Positions 33,641 through 53,482 of a DNA stretch of 64,000 nt are shown here, piece by piece. The DNA lies in NCBI GenBank assembly GCA_023249225.1, contig JAHFDA010000006.1:1349-65348 (forward strand), written 5' to 3'. Both the position numbers and the translations under genes were made by a program. Below the pieces are notes generated by a model. That model ran no database searches. It was not told the DNA's origin and was given only the letters and a program-made list of their open reading frames with translations. Numbering within the stretch: the first letter of the stretch is position 1; each line of letters begins with the position of its first letter. The stretch is from a bacterium (GTDB taxonomy: Bacteria > Margulisbacteria > Marinamargulisbacteria > JAHFDA01).

Positions 33641-33668
33641 GCGTGAAGCGTGAAGCGTGAAGCGTGGG
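33641..33668. repeat. Tandem heptamer (GCGTGAA)x3 plus GCGTGGG in the 43-bp spacer between the amidohydrolase stop and the metG start
   Basis: Read directly from the sequence. The same heptamer array recurs at 52728-52755. Confidence 0.8.
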
Positions 33669-33669
33669 T

Positions 33670-34875
33670 TTACTTGATCTTTTGACCGGAAACAAAGCTG
33701 TGCTGCAGCGCGCCGATCGCGTTGTATGAAAACGCCGACTCACACAGTTCCCATACCCCAAAATCGGCATAAAATCCTTTTTCGAGTTTACCTGCCAGGG
33801 CTCCCATGCCAATGGCCTCGGCGGCGGTTTCGGTGGCCATGGTCCAAAAGGCGTTAGGGTTTTCTTCGGGATGGCGCTTGATCAGGTAGTCGATTTCGTC
33901 GCGCAGGCTCAAGCTAAAGTTGCTGGCCAGGCTGTCTGTTCCCAGGCACACCGGAATGCCGGCGGCCTGCATGCGCTTCCAGGGGTGTTGCGGGTGCTTA
34001 AAATACTCGTGTGTGCAGCGCGGACAGTAAACCACTGCAGCGCCATGCTTTTGTAACAAAGCAAAATCGCTTTCGGCCAGATAAGTTCCATGCGCAAATA
34101 AAATGCGCGGAGCATTTTGGCAGCTTTCATAGATATACTGCGCGGGTGTTTTGCGGGGTGCCTGGTAAGCGCTCATGTCGTAACCCAGGGACTGATACAG
34201 TTCCCGCAAGGGTCCCTGGCCAGATGCTAAAAATTCAATTTCTGCTTTGGTTTCTGCCAGGTGAGTGGTTAGCAAGCGCTGCTGCTTTTGGGCCAGGTCT
34301 GCGCACAGGCCATACAGTTCCGGCGCAACCGTATAAGGCGCATGCGGAGAAACACCGGCTTTAAAAAATTCATCTTCTTCGATCATCGCAAGCAGAGTCT
34401 CCAACGCACCCATGCTGCGGACAGATTCATTTGCATCCAGCGTAAACACCTCAAAGCAGGCCAGTTTGCGCAGGGGCGCTTTAAGCAACGGCTCATAAAT
34501 ATGCTGCGAGCTGATATCCACCACAGTCGTGGTTCCGCTTTGAATCAACGCGTCGAGGCCACGTTGCATGCTGTGATGAAAAACAGATTTGTTCCAGCGG
34601 CGGCGCAAATCCACCAGCGTGCGGATCCAGGACGCAAAATCTGGGCCGGGTTCGATTTTGTTTTGCAGCAGCGTCAGCTCAAGATGACAGTGCGCATTGA
34701 TGAGGCCGGGGAGCATGACGGCATTGTCAAAACGGTTTACCTGTTCAAGCGGGTAGGCCGAACGAATTTCATTAAGTGTCCCAACATCGGCAATTTGGCC
34801 ACTTTTAATAAGTAGTGCTCCATCTTTTATCAGGGTCTGGCTATTACAGAGGATGTGGGGTGCAGAGTAAATCAT
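33670..34875 (-). CDS. Metal-dependent amidohydrolase (cytosine/adenosine-deaminase superfamily). Possibly the aminodeoxyfutalosine deaminase of the futalosine pathway.
   Basis: PGLINAHCHLEL is the HxH metal motif. HGTYL and a later aspartate follow the amidohydrolase pattern. The gene lies among mqn genes. Confidence 0.7.
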   Translation of the reverse strand: MIYSAPHILCNSQTLIKDGALLIKSGQIADVGTLNEIRSAYPLEQVNRFDNAVMLPGLINAHCHLELTLLQNKIEPGPDFASWIRTLVDLRRRWNKSVFHHSMQRGLDALIQSGTTTVVDISSQHIYEPLLKAPLRKLACFEVFTLDANESVRSMGALETLLAMIEEDEFFKAGVSPHAPYTVAPELYGLCADLAQKQQRLLTTHLAETKAEIEFLASGQGPLRELYQSLGYDMSAYQAPRKTPAQYIYESCQNAPRILFAHGTYLAESDFALLQKHGAAVVYCPRCTHEYFKHPQHPWKRMQAAGIPVCLGTDSLASNFSLSLRDEIDYLIKRHPEENPNAFWTMATETAAEAIGMGALAGKLEKGFYADFGVWELCESAFSYNAIGALQHSFVSGQKIK

Positions 34876-34903: not shown

Positions 34904-35725
34904 TTAGTGCTTGAGCCATTTCTTGTTCTGCGGCTTTTTAAGATAATTTGCCGATGTTGTAACCTTTTTTCTGCTTTTTTTCTCCAGTTCCTTGCGGGCG
35001 TTGCCTGCTACCGTGCCACCGGATTTGGCGGCTTGCTGGTTTTCGGTAAAACCTTGGGCGTCAGTGTTGACGGCAATCTCTTTGGTCGAAGCCTCGCCCA
35101 GCATCGAGAAAATGAGCTCCAAATCGCTCATGTGATCCCGCAGGTTTTGGCGTTTGAGACCCTTGAGTTGCTTGTATTCTGATGGTGTTAAGCCAAAGGT
35201 AGCCTGGGATATTTCCGCAGTCAGAATCTCGTACTCTTTAGGGGCCTTCACTCCGCGTTTTTGCCATTCGTTTGTAAGTTCTTCACGGGTAGCGATGCCA
35301 CGAATGCGTTTTTCTATCCAGTCGTCGTCATAGCCCTTGGCTTTGTACAGGGCCCGGGTACGTTTGGTGCCAAGTTCAGGATCTTCGATTTCTTGGATGC
35401 GTTCGTAACCCACCTTGGCTAGCCAGCGCTTAAAGGGTTCGGCTTTGGGGGAGGGGATAGCCTGAATAATACGGAAAATACCCTCGGTATTGGCGCAGCT
35501 CATTTTTTGCGTCCCGCCACCAGTTTCAATATCAAGGGTATGTACAAACTGTACCCACCCTTTGGCCAGCTCTGGATCACGCTGTTTTATGCGCTGGGTA
35601 TATTGTTTGGGGTCGTTTGAATCGGTTAAAGCCAAAACCACATCTTCAACTACAAACCACCATTCGTTGTTATGAACAGTTTTACGGATTTCTTTGGCGC
35701 GGAAGAGGGCGATGTGGGTGGTCAT
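34904..35725 (-). CDS. Bro-N domain protein, DinD (DNA-damage-inducible protein D)-like
   Basis: The N-terminal ...IRKTVHNNEWWFVVEDVVLAL... is a Bro-N/KilA-N-type motif. The start is taken at MTTHIAL, 8 nt downstream of the Fic stop. Confidence 0.55.
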   Translation of the reverse strand: MTTHIALFRAKEIRKTVHNNEWWFVVEDVVLALTDSNDPKQYTQRIKQRDPELAKGWVQFVHTLDIETGGGTQKMSCANTEGIFRIIQAIPSPKAEPFKRWLAKVGYERIQEIEDPELGTKRTRALYKAKGYDDDWIEKRIRGIATREELTNEWQKRGVKAPKEYEILTAEISQATFGLTPSEYKQLKGLKRQNLRDHMSDLELIFSMLGEASTKEIAVNTDAQGFTENQQAAKSGGTVAGNARKELEKKSRKKVTTSANYLKKPQNKKWLKH

Positions 35726-35732
35726 AAGTAAG

Positions 35733-36797
35733 TTATATTTTGTCCCATCCTTGTCGATTTTTCCGTTCCCACCGTGCCGCCCGCCCTGTTCCCAGGCAGC
35801 GAACCTTTTTCTCCTTGCGCATCCCGTTAAGCACCACACGAATCATGTCGTGGGAGACATGCGGACACGCAGCCTCGACATCCGCCAGCGTAAACTGCAG
35901 GGGCAATTCGCGCACCGACTGCTCGACCAAAACGGTTTTGTTTCCGCGTCGGCGTTGAAGTTTGCCAAGTTGCGTTTCGAACTGCTTGTAGGCTTCCACC
36001 AGCGTGACAATAAAAAATTCGGTCCACGGGCGAATGTCATGTTTCCCAAGATGCCAGTTTTTTGAGGAGCGCTGCAGAACATCGTAATACTGCTCCTTGC
36101 GATCCTCGACGATTTTTTCCAGAGCCACATAGCGGCCCACATCGTAGTCATTTTGATAGAGCAGCAGGGTGGTTAGGAGTCGCGAGAGCCTGCCATTGCC
36201 GTCGCGGAACGGATGGATGCATAAAAAATCAAGCACCAGCGCAGCGACCCGTACCACGTCTGGAATCTGCCCATCCTCGGCCAGATCGTGATACCGGCGA
36301 CAGGTTTCCTTAACGAAAGCGGGCGTTTGCCGGGCTGAAACTGGAACAAACCGGGTTTTCCACGAACCATCTGGAAGCCGCTCCTCAATGGTATTGTCCC
36401 GCCGTTTAAAGTGGCCGACAGGCTCGTCGGTCAGCCGGAACATTTCTTTGTGAAAATCCAGGATGCTTTCGGGGGTCAAACGCAAGCGCAGCGGCTTTTG
36501 GTGAATGCGCGACAAAACGGCCTTGTACCCCAACACCTCCGCCTCGGAACGATTGCCAGGTTTGGCGTTTTTAAACAGAGCCTTGATACGCTGCGGCGTT
36601 ACCACCACGCCTTCGATGCGGTTGGATGACTCGGTGCTTTGGATCATGGCGCTGTATCTTAGTGTTTCAAGGGTTTGCGGGGTTTGTTTCTTAAATAAGT
36701 CCTGCCGACCCTTGTAACGGCCTAATTGCTGGAGCAACCCGGCAAAAGAGATGTCGAAATACTGATCCTTTAAATAATGGGGATCAAGGGAAAACAT
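35733..36797 (-). CDS. Fic/Doc (Fido) family protein
   Basis: HPFRDGNGRLSRLL is the canonical Fic motif HPFx[DE]GNGR. A winged-helix-like tail follows it. Confidence 0.85.
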   Translation of the reverse strand: MFSLDPHYLKDQYFDISFAGLLQQLGRYKGRQDLFKKQTPQTLETLRYSAMIQSTESSNRIEGVVVTPQRIKALFKNAKPGNRSEAEVLGYKAVLSRIHQKPLRLRLTPESILDFHKEMFRLTDEPVGHFKRRDNTIEERLPDGSWKTRFVPVSARQTPAFVKETCRRYHDLAEDGQIPDVVRVAALVLDFLCIHPFRDGNGRLSRLLTTLLLYQNDYDVGRYVALEKIVEDRKEQYYDVLQRSSKNWHLGKHDIRPWTEFFIVTLVEAYKQFETQLGKLQRRRGNKTVLVEQSVRELPLQFTLADVEAACPHVSHDMIRVVLNGMRKEKKVRCLGTGRAARWERKNRQGWDKI

Positions 36798-50576: not shown

Positions 50577-51430
50577 AACAACACATCCGCGCTGACAAAG
50601 AGGCAGAAGACCACGGCGATGGCCCCGTTGGCGGTAAAGAATGCTGCATTGGCTTGATCCAAGCGGTTTCCCCGCAGCAACCAGTGTTCGTACACCAAAA
50701 AGACCACCACCACCATGAGCCCCACCTGTGCAAGCGCCCCGGCATGAACAAGTATTAAAAACTTTTGCAGCATGATGACCATGGCCAGGTGAAAAAATTT
50801 GCTGATTTTTAGTGCCGCTGGAATTCCGAAGAGTTGCGGAATTGAAAACACCTGCCCCGAGGCGCGGTCAAATTCCGCATCCTGACAGGCATAGATGATG
50901 TCAAAGCCTGCCACCCAAAAAAGTACCGCCAGACATAGCCATAGCGAGGGTATCCAAATAGTTCCGGTTACCGCCACGGCGGCTCCGATGGGGGCAAGGC
51001 CGAGCGCCAAACCAAGTGCCAGGTGACTCATGCTGGTCAAGCGCTTGGTGTACGAATATCCAAGCAAGACGGCCAGGGTAGGCAGCGACAGAGCAAAAGC
51101 CAGTGGGTTTACAAAAAAAGTGGCGGCGATAAATAACACCGCATGGGTCAGACAAAATAAAAGCGCATAGCGGCGGCTTAAAATGCCTTTAGGAATGTGC
51201 CGCTCGCGGGTGCGCGGGTTTTGGGCGTCAATGTCGGCATCGGCCCAGCGGTTAAAGGCCATGGCTGCATTGCGGGCGCTGACCATGCAAAATACGATCA
51301 GCGCCGTGATGTGCCACTGTGGAAGACCCCCGGCAGCATAAAGTATCGACACCAGCGCAAAGGGCAAGGCAAAAATGGAGTGTGAAAATTTGATCATCTC
51401 AAACGTCATGAGGATTTTTTTAAAAAGCAT
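50573..51430 (-). CDS. UbiA-family aromatic prenyltransferase (MenA/1,4-dihydroxy-naphthoate prenyltransferase-like)
   Basis: NRWADADIDAQNPRTRERHIP is the UbiA Asp-rich motif NxxxDxxxD. It is a polytopic membrane protein. The start MLFKK overlaps the upstream stop (TAATG). Confidence 0.8.
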   Translation of the reverse strand: MLFKKILMTFEMIKFSHSIFALPFALVSILYAAGGLPQWHITALIVFCMVSARNAAMAFNRWADADIDAQNPRTRERHIPKGILSRRYALLFCLTHAVLFIAATFFVNPLAFALSLPTLAVLLGYSYTKRLTSMSHLALGLALGLAPIGAAVAVTGTIWIPSLWLCLAVLFWVAGFDIIYACQDAEFDRASGQVFSIPQLFGIPAALKISKFFHLAMVIMLQKFLILVHAGALAQVGLMVVVVFLVYEHWLLRGNRLDQANAAFFTANGAIAVVFCLFVSADVLF

Positions 51431-52200
51431 TACAGCAGGGTGACCAAAAGCTGCTTGCATTTTTCTAAATTTTCCTCATCTTCAATCGACCACAGCGGAC
51501 GAATAGCGGTGGTAAAGGCCTGATCAAGATATTTTTTAGCAATCTCTTTTTCGCCTTTTTCATGGTAGGCAAAAGCCAGACTTTTAAGCGCGCTGATGCT
51601 GGCTTCGCGGTCCACCGCCTCAAGCCCGTAATGCACGGCCTTGTCTTTGCTACCGATACTGATGGGCCAAGGTGGAGCCTGGCGGTAAAGTTCACTAAGG
51701 AGCACCCGCGCCGACACGTTGTCCGGATTTAAGATCAGCACGGTCTGCATAATTTCTTTAACTTTGCTTACGGCAAACAAGCTGGACAGAATGCCGCGAT
51801 TTTGTGCGGCCCGGCTGATGGCCATGCCGTACCAGAGCTGGGCCTGCCATAACCTGGGCCGGGCGTTGACGGCTTCAAGTCCGTGGTGCTCTGCCAGCTC
51901 AAAGTAATTTTTTTTCTGGTCGGCATTTTCGGACAGCAATCCAAGTCCGATGTAAATCCGCGCCAGGCGCCAGTGCGCAGAAGCAATGTTGGGCCCGTTG
52001 GTCTCGGCAACCTCTTTTAAAATACGGACGGCCCGTAACTGGGTTTCAAGATTAGGGCGGTCTGCGTACAAACGGTCGGTATTCAGTAATATGGCGTCAA
52101 CGGGTTCATCTGCCCTAAGCAGGGTCCCCGTCGCTACAAGCAGCCCACAGAGCAACAGGATGCTTAGAAGTTTACGGATCAATGTGACGCGTCTTTCCAC
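51430..52200 (-). CDS. Secreted TPR/Sel1-like repeat protein, hypothetical
   Basis: It has an N-terminal signal peptide (LLLCGLLVATGTLLRA) and helical repeats. Confidence 0.5.
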   Translation of the reverse strand: MERRVTLIRKLLSILLLCGLLVATGTLLRADEPVDAILLNTDRLYADRPNLETQLRAVRILKEVAETNGPNIASAHWRLARIYIGLGLLSENADQKKNYFELAEHHGLEAVNARPRLWQAQLWYGMAISRAAQNRGILSSLFAVSKVKEIMQTVLILNPDNVSARVLLSELYRQAPPWPISIGSKDKAVHYGLEAVDREASISALKSLAFAYHEKGEKEIAKKYLDQAFTTAIRPLWSIEDEENLEKCKQLLVTLL

Positions 52201-52766
52201 GCTTTGTGCAAGCGTTGCGGCAGGTCAAAATGATCAAGGATTCGTCCGACTACAAAATTCACCAGATCATCAATCGATTTTGGACGCTGATAAAAACCGG
52301 GGTTGGCGTCCAAAATAGTGGCGCCCGCCAAGGCCAGCGCATGCATGTTGCCAAGGTGAATGACGCTGTACGGCGTTTCGCGCGGAACCAACACCAGTTT
52401 GCGGCCTTCTTTTAAACACACGTCTGCGGCGCGCTGCAGCAGGTTTTGCGACAGGCCACCTGCGATGCTTCCCAAAGTTCCGACCGAACAAGGCACCACA
52501 ACCATTCCCATGGTTTTAAAACTACCCGAGGCGATGGGGGCGAAAAAATCATTAATCTGATGGCGGATCAACTTTCGCTTGGGCAACCAATTTTTGCCAA
52601 GTTCATAGGTAGCCACTTTTTCGCCGTTTTCTGAAACCACCAAATGCACCTCGATGTTCGCAGGAATTGTCTCGATCAGCCTTTTGGCGTATAGGCTGCC
52701 GCTGGCGCCGGTGATGCCGACGATCAAGCGTGAAGCGTGAAGCGTGAAGCGTGAAGAATTCGTCAT
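52179..52766 (-). CDS. ubiX: Flavin prenyltransferase UbiX. The start is either the ATG at 52766, which is coupled to the menG stop, or the TTG at 52727.
   Basis: RLIVGITGASGSLYAKRLIE is the UbiX N-terminal signature. The heptamer repeat array lies between the two candidate starts. Confidence 0.8.
   Translation of the reverse strand: MTNSSRFTLHASRLIVGITGASGSLYAKRLIETIPANIEVHLVVSENGEKVATYELGKNWLPKRKLIRHQINDFFAPIASGSFKTMGMVVVPCSVGTLGSIAGGLSQNLLQRAADVCLKEGRKLVLVPRETPYSVIHLGNMHALALAGATILDANPGFYQRPKSIDDLVNFVVGRILDHFDLPQRLHKAWKDASH
52728..52755. repeat. Tandem heptamer (GCGTGAA)x4 at the 5' end of ubiX
   Basis: Read directly from the sequence. It is identical to the array at 33641-33661. Confidence 0.8.
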
Positions 52767-53482
52767 GGCTTTGTCCCGATAAAGCAACTCACCACACCAA
52801 AGGTCATGGAGTGGACGTGGCAGTTTGAAAAGCCAGACTGTTCCATCAATTTTAAAAAAGCGGGGCGGGGCGGAAACTTTCCGACCGAGTCGGGCAGATA
52901 CGTGTAGGCCCGGGAGTCGCGGCTGATGAGGGCACCCAGGCGTGGGAGGATTTTGCTGAAATACAGTTTGAATAAGGGGCCAAACACGGGGTGGTGGGTG
53001 TCGTTGAATTCAAGGATGACGGCTTTTCCGCCCGGGTAGAGAACACGGCGCATTTCGCGCAGACCCCGTTCCAGATCGGCCACGTTGCGGATGCCAAAAG
53101 CCACCGATGTCAGGTTAAAACTTTCATCGGCAAAAGGCAGGGCTAGCGTATCGGCCTGGGAGATGTTCAGCTTGTGTTCCAGCGCTGTTCCGGCCACTTT
53201 GGCACGGAAAAGTTCCAGCATGGGCGCCACAAAATCTGTTCCAGTTACCCTTCCGTTGGGACCGAGACGGTGGGCAAACTCGATGGCCAAGTCGCCGGTG
53301 CCACAACACACATCCAGAATCTGCGCGTCTGGTTGTGCCGCAGCCAGCGTGACAGACTTGCGACGCCAGTAACGGTCTACATTTAAACTTAAAAGATGGT
53401 TTAAAAAATCGTAGCGAGGCGCAATACGCGCAAACATGTCCTGTACGTAGGTGGCCTTGTCGACAGCGGAGAAGGTGTTCAA
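52763..53482 (-). CDS. ubiE: Demethylmenaquinone/ubiquinone C-methyltransferase
   Basis: YDFLNHLLSLNVDRYWRR is the UbiE/MenG signature. It also has the SAM-binding DVCCGTGD. Confidence 0.85.
   Translation of the reverse strand: MNTFSAVDKATYVQDMFARIAPRYDFLNHLLSLNVDRYWRRKSVTLAAAQPDAQILDVCCGTGDLAIEFAHRLGPNGRVTGTDFVAPMLELFRAKVAGTALEHKLNISQADTLALPFADESFNLTSVAFGIRNVADLERGLREMRRVLYPGGKAVILEFNDTHHPVFGPLFKLYFSKILPRLGALISRDSRAYTYLPDSVGKFPPRPAFLKLMEQSGFSNCHVHSMTFGVVSCFIGTKP

Follow-up and report, generated by a model that had tools for sequence, protein, structure and literature searches.

The STRR sequences of cyanobacteria are heptamer repeats. Heptamer repeats are also recognised more widely as an over-represented class in bacteria (PMC4692102; PMC4679880), with GGGAATC in Xanthomonas and GGGGA(C/T)T in Nostoc as genome-favoured units (Rehm et al. 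2015, PMC4692102). TAACTGA repeats, described from marine Beggiatoaceae, some Cyanobacteria and Bacteroidetes (MacGregor 2015, PMC4679880), occur as sets of 2-6 copies at many loci per genome, mostly in the forward orientation and a few nucleotides from start codons. They are intergenic, lack a canonical ribosome-binding site, span unrelated phyla and precede genes without a common function, some of them essential; a repeat-binding factor or a translational effect is unproven (PMC4679880). A different behaviour is known from the hmw1 and hmw2 genes of H. influenzae, the one heptanucleotide phase-variation system that has been studied well, where an ATCTTTC tract of 11-63 units in the 5'-UTR pairs with a G-rich arm to give a long hairpin that is processed by RNase III, the product being a surface adhesin of a host-adapted pathogen (PMC12721329).

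Here we examine two arrays of the heptamer CACGCTT in a 64,000-nt stretch of bacterial DNA (the window). The longer of them is a perfect heptanucleotide array on the minus strand at 52726..52756, at the junction of ubiE/menG and ubiX, for which Tandem Repeats Finder (TRF) gives a period of 7, 4.4 copies, 100% matches and a score of 62. The unit reads AAGCGTG on the plus strand and CACGCTT on the ubiX sense strand. The array begins 6 nt after the ubiE stop and 10 nt past an ATG (52766), and its far end runs into a TTG (52727); read on the minus strand from 52800, the sequence is ...TGCTTTATCGGGACAAAGCC ATG ACG AAT TCT TCA CGC TTC ACG CTT CAC GCT TCA CGC TTG ATC GTC GGC ATC ACC GGC GCC AGC GGC..., and the interval 52728-52766 comprises the array and 10 non-repeat bases, ATGACGAATT. 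Thus the fourfold heptamer array that a sequence-only reading had placed between two candidate ubiX starts is present, and its description as the "same heptamer" holds as well, since a second array, listed as GCGTGAA x3.7, lies on the same strand at 33641-33666. The two form head-to-tail perfect copies of one 7-nt unit (4.4 and 3.7 copies) at unlinked loci 19 kb apart, with the same unit on the same strand of the 64-kb window. They are the only heptamer repeats within it and, besides one 15-nt hexamer run, its only perfect period-4-12 repeats of similar length. The two-unit 14-mer, with at most two mismatches allowed, matches the window six times against 0.51 expected, none of 100 shuffles reached six, and a chance origin of the arrays is excluded. 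A literature search with the two-unit CACGCTT string gave no relevant context. NarL-type heptamers, the P1 parS box A and rut sites were dropped as candidates for want of a fit in sequence or spacing.

The second array, (CACGCTT)x3.7 on the minus strand at 33641..33666 (TRF and sequence), is non-coding. An aminofutalosine-deaminase-like gene (stop 33670) and metG (ATG 33626) are separated by a 43-nt spacer, the greater part of which is taken up by the array. The array begins 3 nt past the upstream stop and ends 14 nt short of the only possible metG ATG, before which there is no Shine-Dalgarno sequence. An essential gene, metG, is thus translated from directly behind a CACGCTT repeat. The metG array is intergenic, while the ubiX array sits at a gene junction and probably inside the first 14 codons. 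The copy number before metG is identical in the Logan contig L254, which matches the window at 100% identity across 4,481 nt; it therefore comes from the same population and is not an independent strain.

The RNA of the ubiX array is essentially unstructured (-1.4 kcal/mol, z 0.5; z 0.05 in a 111-nt context), and folding of the array alone and of this context gave no significant structure. Neither a promoter-like site nor an inverted partner arm was found at the array, no terminator lies near it (the sole terminator-like match is inside ubiE, about 300 nt off), and no Rfam family was found in the window.

The gene that the array adjoins is a member of the UbiX family of flavin prenyltransferases. 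Encoded on the minus strand at 52179..52766, with 195 aa from the ATG, it scores 205.1 bits against NCBIfam NF004685 (cutoff 188) and 197.1 bits against TIGR00421 (cutoff 108.9), so that both curated cutoffs are passed, and it matches the Rossmann-like flavoprotein fold over its full length, with E=1e-49 to the UbiX structure PDB 6m8v over residues 13-191. The family profiles begin at residues 12-13 and residue 2 of 6m8v aligns to residue 13; because both begin there, the repeat-encoded residues lie outside the UbiX fold, which begins at residue 13. Directly upstream is the ubiE/menG methyltransferase (minus strand, 52763..53482), which starts at TTG 53482 or ATG 53437 and matches TIGR01934 with 246 bits through residue 238 of 239; the 239-aa form is absent from database records, where only a 224-aa version was found. 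The first candidate start of ubiX, the ATG at 52764..52766, overlaps the ubiE/menG stop as ATGA, as the sequence-only reading had it (ATG 52766-52764, TGA 52765-52763, minus strand), and the second is the TTG at 52725..52727 on the same strand, two T's of which are common to the last repeat unit.

Genes of the futalosine pathway are dispersed over the window and include UbiE and UbiX themselves, MqnE (48385-49473), a second CofH-like radical SAM gene, the aminofutalosine-deaminase-like hydrolase (33670-34875) and a UbiA/MqnP-like prenyltransferase (50573-51460). Between ubiX and the last of these lies a gene for a 256-aa TPR/RMD1-3-like protein (51430-52200), which overlaps both neighbours by about 20-30 nt. 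Two further regions, 34904-36797 and about 49600-50070, contain genes of other kinds: a Bro-N-domain gene and a Fic gene stand among the menaquinone-pathway genes, and the Pfam labels of the ENA contig that matches the window place a ParE-toxin/antitoxin pair between a polyketide-cyclase-like ORF (50076-50576) and mqnE. These genes may be mobile or defence-related insertions. A Shine-Dalgarno motif is missing from most window genes with unambiguous ATG starts, and starts and stops often overlap by four bases. For RadA, two environmental sequences are 64-67% identical and no named organism exceeds 52%, and the closest UbiX relatives come from groundwater assemblies. The source seems to be a groundwater lineage that branches deeply and is poor in Shine-Dalgarno sequences.

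What the array means for the cell depends on which start codon ubiX uses. The gene callers behind the NCBI and ENA records choose the ATG at 52766, from which translation gives MTNSSRFTLHASRLIVG, with the repeat read as (S)SRFTLHASR(L); the peptide SSRFTLHASR had been predicted from the sequence, correctly so. A comparison can be made with L120, the only close relative for which DNA is available, whose UbiX is 70% identical and whose junction reads TAA T ATG ACG AGC AAT CGA GCC AGT CAG CCA GCT AGC CAG CGA ATC GTA GTG GGA. Relative to the window, ATGACGA is kept, the next ~30 nt are unrelated, and similarity returns at ATCGT...TCACCGGCGCCAGCGGCAGC. Exactly at the position of the heptamer array, L120 (214-255) carries a degenerate 8-nt repeat, GCCAGNNA x3 by TRF, which adds 24 nt in frame. 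The sequence-only reading had called for the extension to be compared across orthologs, and in this one ortholog it is of similar length but built from a different, degenerate 8-nt repeat. Without its 24-nt insert L120 would begin MTSNR-IVVG, and without three units (21 nt) the window would begin MTNSSR-LIVG. The two lineages thus share an MT(S/N)(N/S)..R start and have each received an in-frame three-unit insert at the same place, the L120 insert being independent of the window's array. Were there no constraint on frame, the chance that both inserts are in frame would be about 1 in 9.

The comparison with the wider family points the same way. R13-L14 of UbiX fit the family pattern [KR]-[LYI]-IVG, and 8-9 residues precede the GASG motif in 87 of 118 homologs. 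The TTG start would leave 6 residues before GASG, the ATG start 19, and the ATG start minus three units 12, which is within the usual range; 15 or more are present in about 12% of the 118 closest homologs. A product begun at the TTG (M-IVGITGASG) would have a shorter N-terminus than about 116 of the 118, matched only by P0002 and one fragment, and a database look-up found no TTG-initiated UbiX product. Because ATGACGA is kept, the L120 insert is in frame, the R-L codons fit and the TTG N-terminus is atypically short, the ATG is the more likely start, and we regard it as probably the main one; that the TTG plays this part is possible but doubtful. Nonetheless, P0002 (75% identical) is called as MIVGV, 11 nt after its ubiE stop, so that a UbiX begun where the TTG lies may well work. 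A metagenome scan for further UbiX relatives returned none above 54% identity. A perfect array was presumably built up unit by unit, which would mean that out-of-frame intermediates were tolerated and argues for some competence of the TTG, or of re-initiation.

Overall, we believe that the array is best explained as a heptamer microsatellite, one of a genome-specific repeat family, which is read in frame and tolerated within the UbiX N-terminal tail, and we put the probability of this reading at roughly 60%. Slippage would have generated an ordinary heptanucleotide microsatellite, one that would belong to a repeat family preferred by this genome, because the CACGCTT unit recurs on the same strand before metG. 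Translation would start at the kept ATG, coupled to the ubiE stop, and the array would be read in frame, so that three units (21 nt) would have lengthened an ancestral MTNSSR-LIVG by a net 7 residues, all of them placed before the first beta-strand. Such an insert would probably be close to neutral, with the tail outside the fold, the sense unit free of stop codons in all frames and the C/U-rich RNA unstructured, a property that would suit initiation in a Shine-Dalgarno-poor organism. Slips of one unit would shift the frame; at 4.4 units we would expect them to be rare and either removed by selection or made good in part through the TTG, and not to serve as a switch. There is one thing that slippage alone does not explain, namely the identical unit at ubiX and metG: at two loci 19 kb apart, this has a likelihood of roughly 1 in 1000 if units are arbitrary. 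A sequence-specific function or a copy mechanism may therefore exist.

The distribution of the unit in other genomes gives some sense of how such arrays behave. Three CACGCTT units were found at 119 loci or more in a scan of genome contigs, in many phyla (Nitrospirota, Chloroflexota, Omnitrophota, Verrucomicrobiota, Planctomycetota, Deltaproteobacteria, Bacteroidota and others), often several to a genome, with at least 17 genomes contributing at least two loci each, and mostly at gene boundaries. Among the matches listed (at least 119), none comes from the source genome and none has flanks homologous to the window. At ubiX itself the comparison of copy number is confined to a relative with a different repeat (L120) and to same-population assemblies, which agree, but one orthologous array could be compared elsewhere: in two Smithellaceae-type deltaproteobacterial MAGs it has 7.3 copies (L039, 1164-1214) versus 4.6 (L113, 5346-5377) between flanks that are ~94% identical, which is the behaviour expected of a microsatellite. 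In other genomes the arrays frequently form part of longer, mixed stretches of TCACGNN-type units. In Xanthomonas floridensis (L016, 1203-1271, minus strand) a CACGCTT run passes without a break into CCGCTTC/CCGATTC units, and these, read as the reverse complement, are the GGGAATC-type heptamers published for Xanthomonas; this sequence relationship suggests that units drift within one array family.

The recurrence across phyla is not taken as evidence of a conserved element, since in viral contigs it is found at 5 loci and same-composition control heptamers, at 7 and 40, are as frequent or more so. An apparent enrichment just upstream of ATG codons (14 sense versus 4 antisense within 20 nt) was weakened in turn by the many arrays that lie antisense at gene 3' ends. 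The ORF-context survey that showed these antisense arrays is crude, using the longest ORFs and no gene caller, and we rely on it neither way. In MAGs of Nitrospirota, Omnitrophota, Smithellaceae, Binatia and Planctomycetales, CTTCACG arrays have antisense heptamers 15-25 nt upstream, and the antisense motif GTATCTCGTGAAGCGTATCTCGT (units ATCTCGT and GAAGCGT) is seen in L003, L005, L007, L025, L035, L046, L050, L053, L059, L071, L102, L113 and L117. Inverted heptamer pairs of this kind could form hairpins; no Rfam family covers them, and the window's arrays are without such a partner. At the arrays of 13 other loci Rfam likewise gave no family, and in four of these only tRNAs elsewhere.

The sequence-only reading had seen in the locus a hypermutable, phase-variable start region, and its premise is sound: in simulated variants the gain or loss of one 7-nt unit does shift the frame of ubiX, as does a change of two units either way. 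With one unit lost or two gained, the frame from the ATG is 11 or 18 codons long and closes on a TGA with bases in common with the TTG (cTTGAtc), a geometry that could allow re-initiation; with one gained or two lost, 49-56 codons are read out of frame across the TTG; and with three gained or lost the frame is kept. The locus therefore has the formal anatomy of a switch, and one may picture a contingency locus in which slippage toggles UbiX among an in-frame ON state, a partial ON state in which a short upstream ORF ends on the TTG, and an out-of-frame OFF state. All three outcomes exist in silico, CACGCTT arrays do differ in length from one related genome to another, and an assembly is interrupted here: the ubiE-bearing Logan contig L255, from run SRR14366766, enters the ubiX array and stops there after ATT and four units, its positions 1460-1490 corresponding to window 52759-52729. 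A contig end would fall by chance within a given 31-nt stretch in about 1-2% of cases, and this end could reflect low coverage, a SNP at 52728, pure-repeat k-mers shared between arrays, or heterogeneity in unit number. Against the last of these, the break does not appear to be where k=31 reasoning would put it for simple one-unit variants, and the SRR14366766 assembly is fragmentary, with contigs of 1.5-4.5 kb. The 4.4 units fall well short of the natural minimum of 11 in the hmw heptamer switch, a literature threshold from another organism; the RNA forms no hairpin; ubiX encodes a housekeeping enzyme of cofactor synthesis, within the futalosine/menaquinone set of a free-living groundwater lineage; and the 71,568-nt NCBI contig and the 22,951-nt ENA contig (ERZ27297570) have the same unit count, because they encode an identical 195-aa UbiX. 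The 90%-identity cluster of this protein has a single member, no variant UbiX proteins are on record, TTG-initiated ones included, and the presence of the same unit in the clearly non-coding metG array points to a genome-wide family and not a locus-specific switch. With so short a tract, unstructured RNA, a housekeeping gene and agreeing assemblies, the proposal of a hypermutable start finds no support, and we consider a three-state switch very improbable. The same assemblies bear on the opposite worry, that the repeat or its copy number is an artefact of sequencing or assembly. Short tandem repeats are prone to mis-assembly and L255 does break here, but a 31-nt tract is far shorter than a read, the NCBI and ENA contigs encode the same protein straight through it, L255 reproduces 28 nt of it before ending, and the metG array is identical in the Logan assembly; an artefact is hardly credible.

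A better-supported alternative is that ubiX starts at the TTG and that the array is a non-coding intercistronic leader, which would promote initiation without a Shine-Dalgarno sequence either by offering unstructured C/U-rich RNA as a platform or by binding a protein. There is precedent in the role proposed for TAACTGA repeats in Beggiatoaceae (PMC4679880), and the leader layout known from those repeats fits metG well (14 nt from array to start codon, and no Shine-Dalgarno sequence), although it fits ubiX only with the TTG start. The metG array is certainly non-coding and shares its layout with that of ubiX, the two beginning 3 and 6 nt after the preceding stop and ending 14 nt before the ATG and in the TTG, respectively. 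In other genomes, too, several arrays stop 2-20 nt short of an ATG that lacks a Shine-Dalgarno sequence, P0002 starts at the position equivalent to the TTG, the window is poor in Shine-Dalgarno sequences, and the array RNA is unstructured. On the other side, the kept ATGACGA, the in-frame inserts in two lineages and the kept R-L codons all argue for translation from the ATG, and the N-terminus left by the TTG would be atypically short. The orientation of 133 arrays is inconsistent, with ~22 sense and 5'-proximal but ~40 antisense and 3'-proximal in a crude ORF-based count, and the same-composition control heptamers that are as common or commoner in viral contigs speak against anything special in the unit. 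We therefore regard a leader role as unlikely at ubiX. It is also conceivable that CACGCTT arrays serve throughout the genome as a cis-element of intercistronic junctions, read by a putative dedicated factor.

The main value of the preferred reading, a tolerated in-frame microsatellite, is for annotation. The start called for ubiX is probably correct, a DNA microsatellite accounts for the unusual peptide at its N-terminus, and a phase-variable label would need evidence from reads. Two related lineages have independently acquired in-frame UbiX inserts at the same codon, of 3 x 7 nt in one and 3 x 8 nt in the other, which shows clearly, if on a small scale, how microsatellites make N-terminal extensions under reading-frame constraint. 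The arrays also add another lineage to the pattern of a genome-favoured heptamer at gene junctions, including one directly before the essential metG. For the sake of argument, consider a population in which the three-state switch did operate: supply of prenyl-FMN and menaquinone would be heterogeneous among its cells, and the broken contig L255 would be the first sign of mixed counts. Should reads show such mixed counts, a free-living bacterium would be switching a core cofactor gene by means of a repeat, which would be unusual.

In the context of the known systems, the CACGCTT arrays belong with the STRR, GGGAATC and TAACTGA families as a new member. As in the other heptamer families, an identical unit is re-used at unlinked sites of the genome. 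The metG array closely fits the description of the TAACTGA repeats, being a recurring heptamer near the start codon of an essential gene that has no ribosome-binding site. The units differ in that TAACTGA has stop codons in every sense frame, whereas CACGCTT is open in all three and is most likely translated at ubiX; and TAACTGA sets are mostly forward, whereas the orientation of CACGCTT in other genomes is inconsistent by our crude survey and the window holds two loci. The likeness to the GGGAATC, GGGGA(C/T)T and STRR repeats is broader, for these too are genome-specific heptamers of roughly four units, mainly intergenic, variable in length among close relatives, sometimes arranged as inverted pairs and without known function; the GGGAATC and GGGGA(C/T)T units, however, are G-rich and can form G-quadruplexes, while CACGCTT has one G per sense unit and no predicted structure. 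With the hmw tracts the ubiX array has in common a 7-nt tandem repeat at the 5' end of a gene, where a change in length could alter expression, but it has 4.4 units, no hairpin, a housekeeping gene behind it and no variation observed among assemblies. Finally, the longer N-termini of about 12% of the UbiX homologs indicate that the family tolerates extra residues there; in the window and L120 the extension is visibly made from a tandem DNA repeat.
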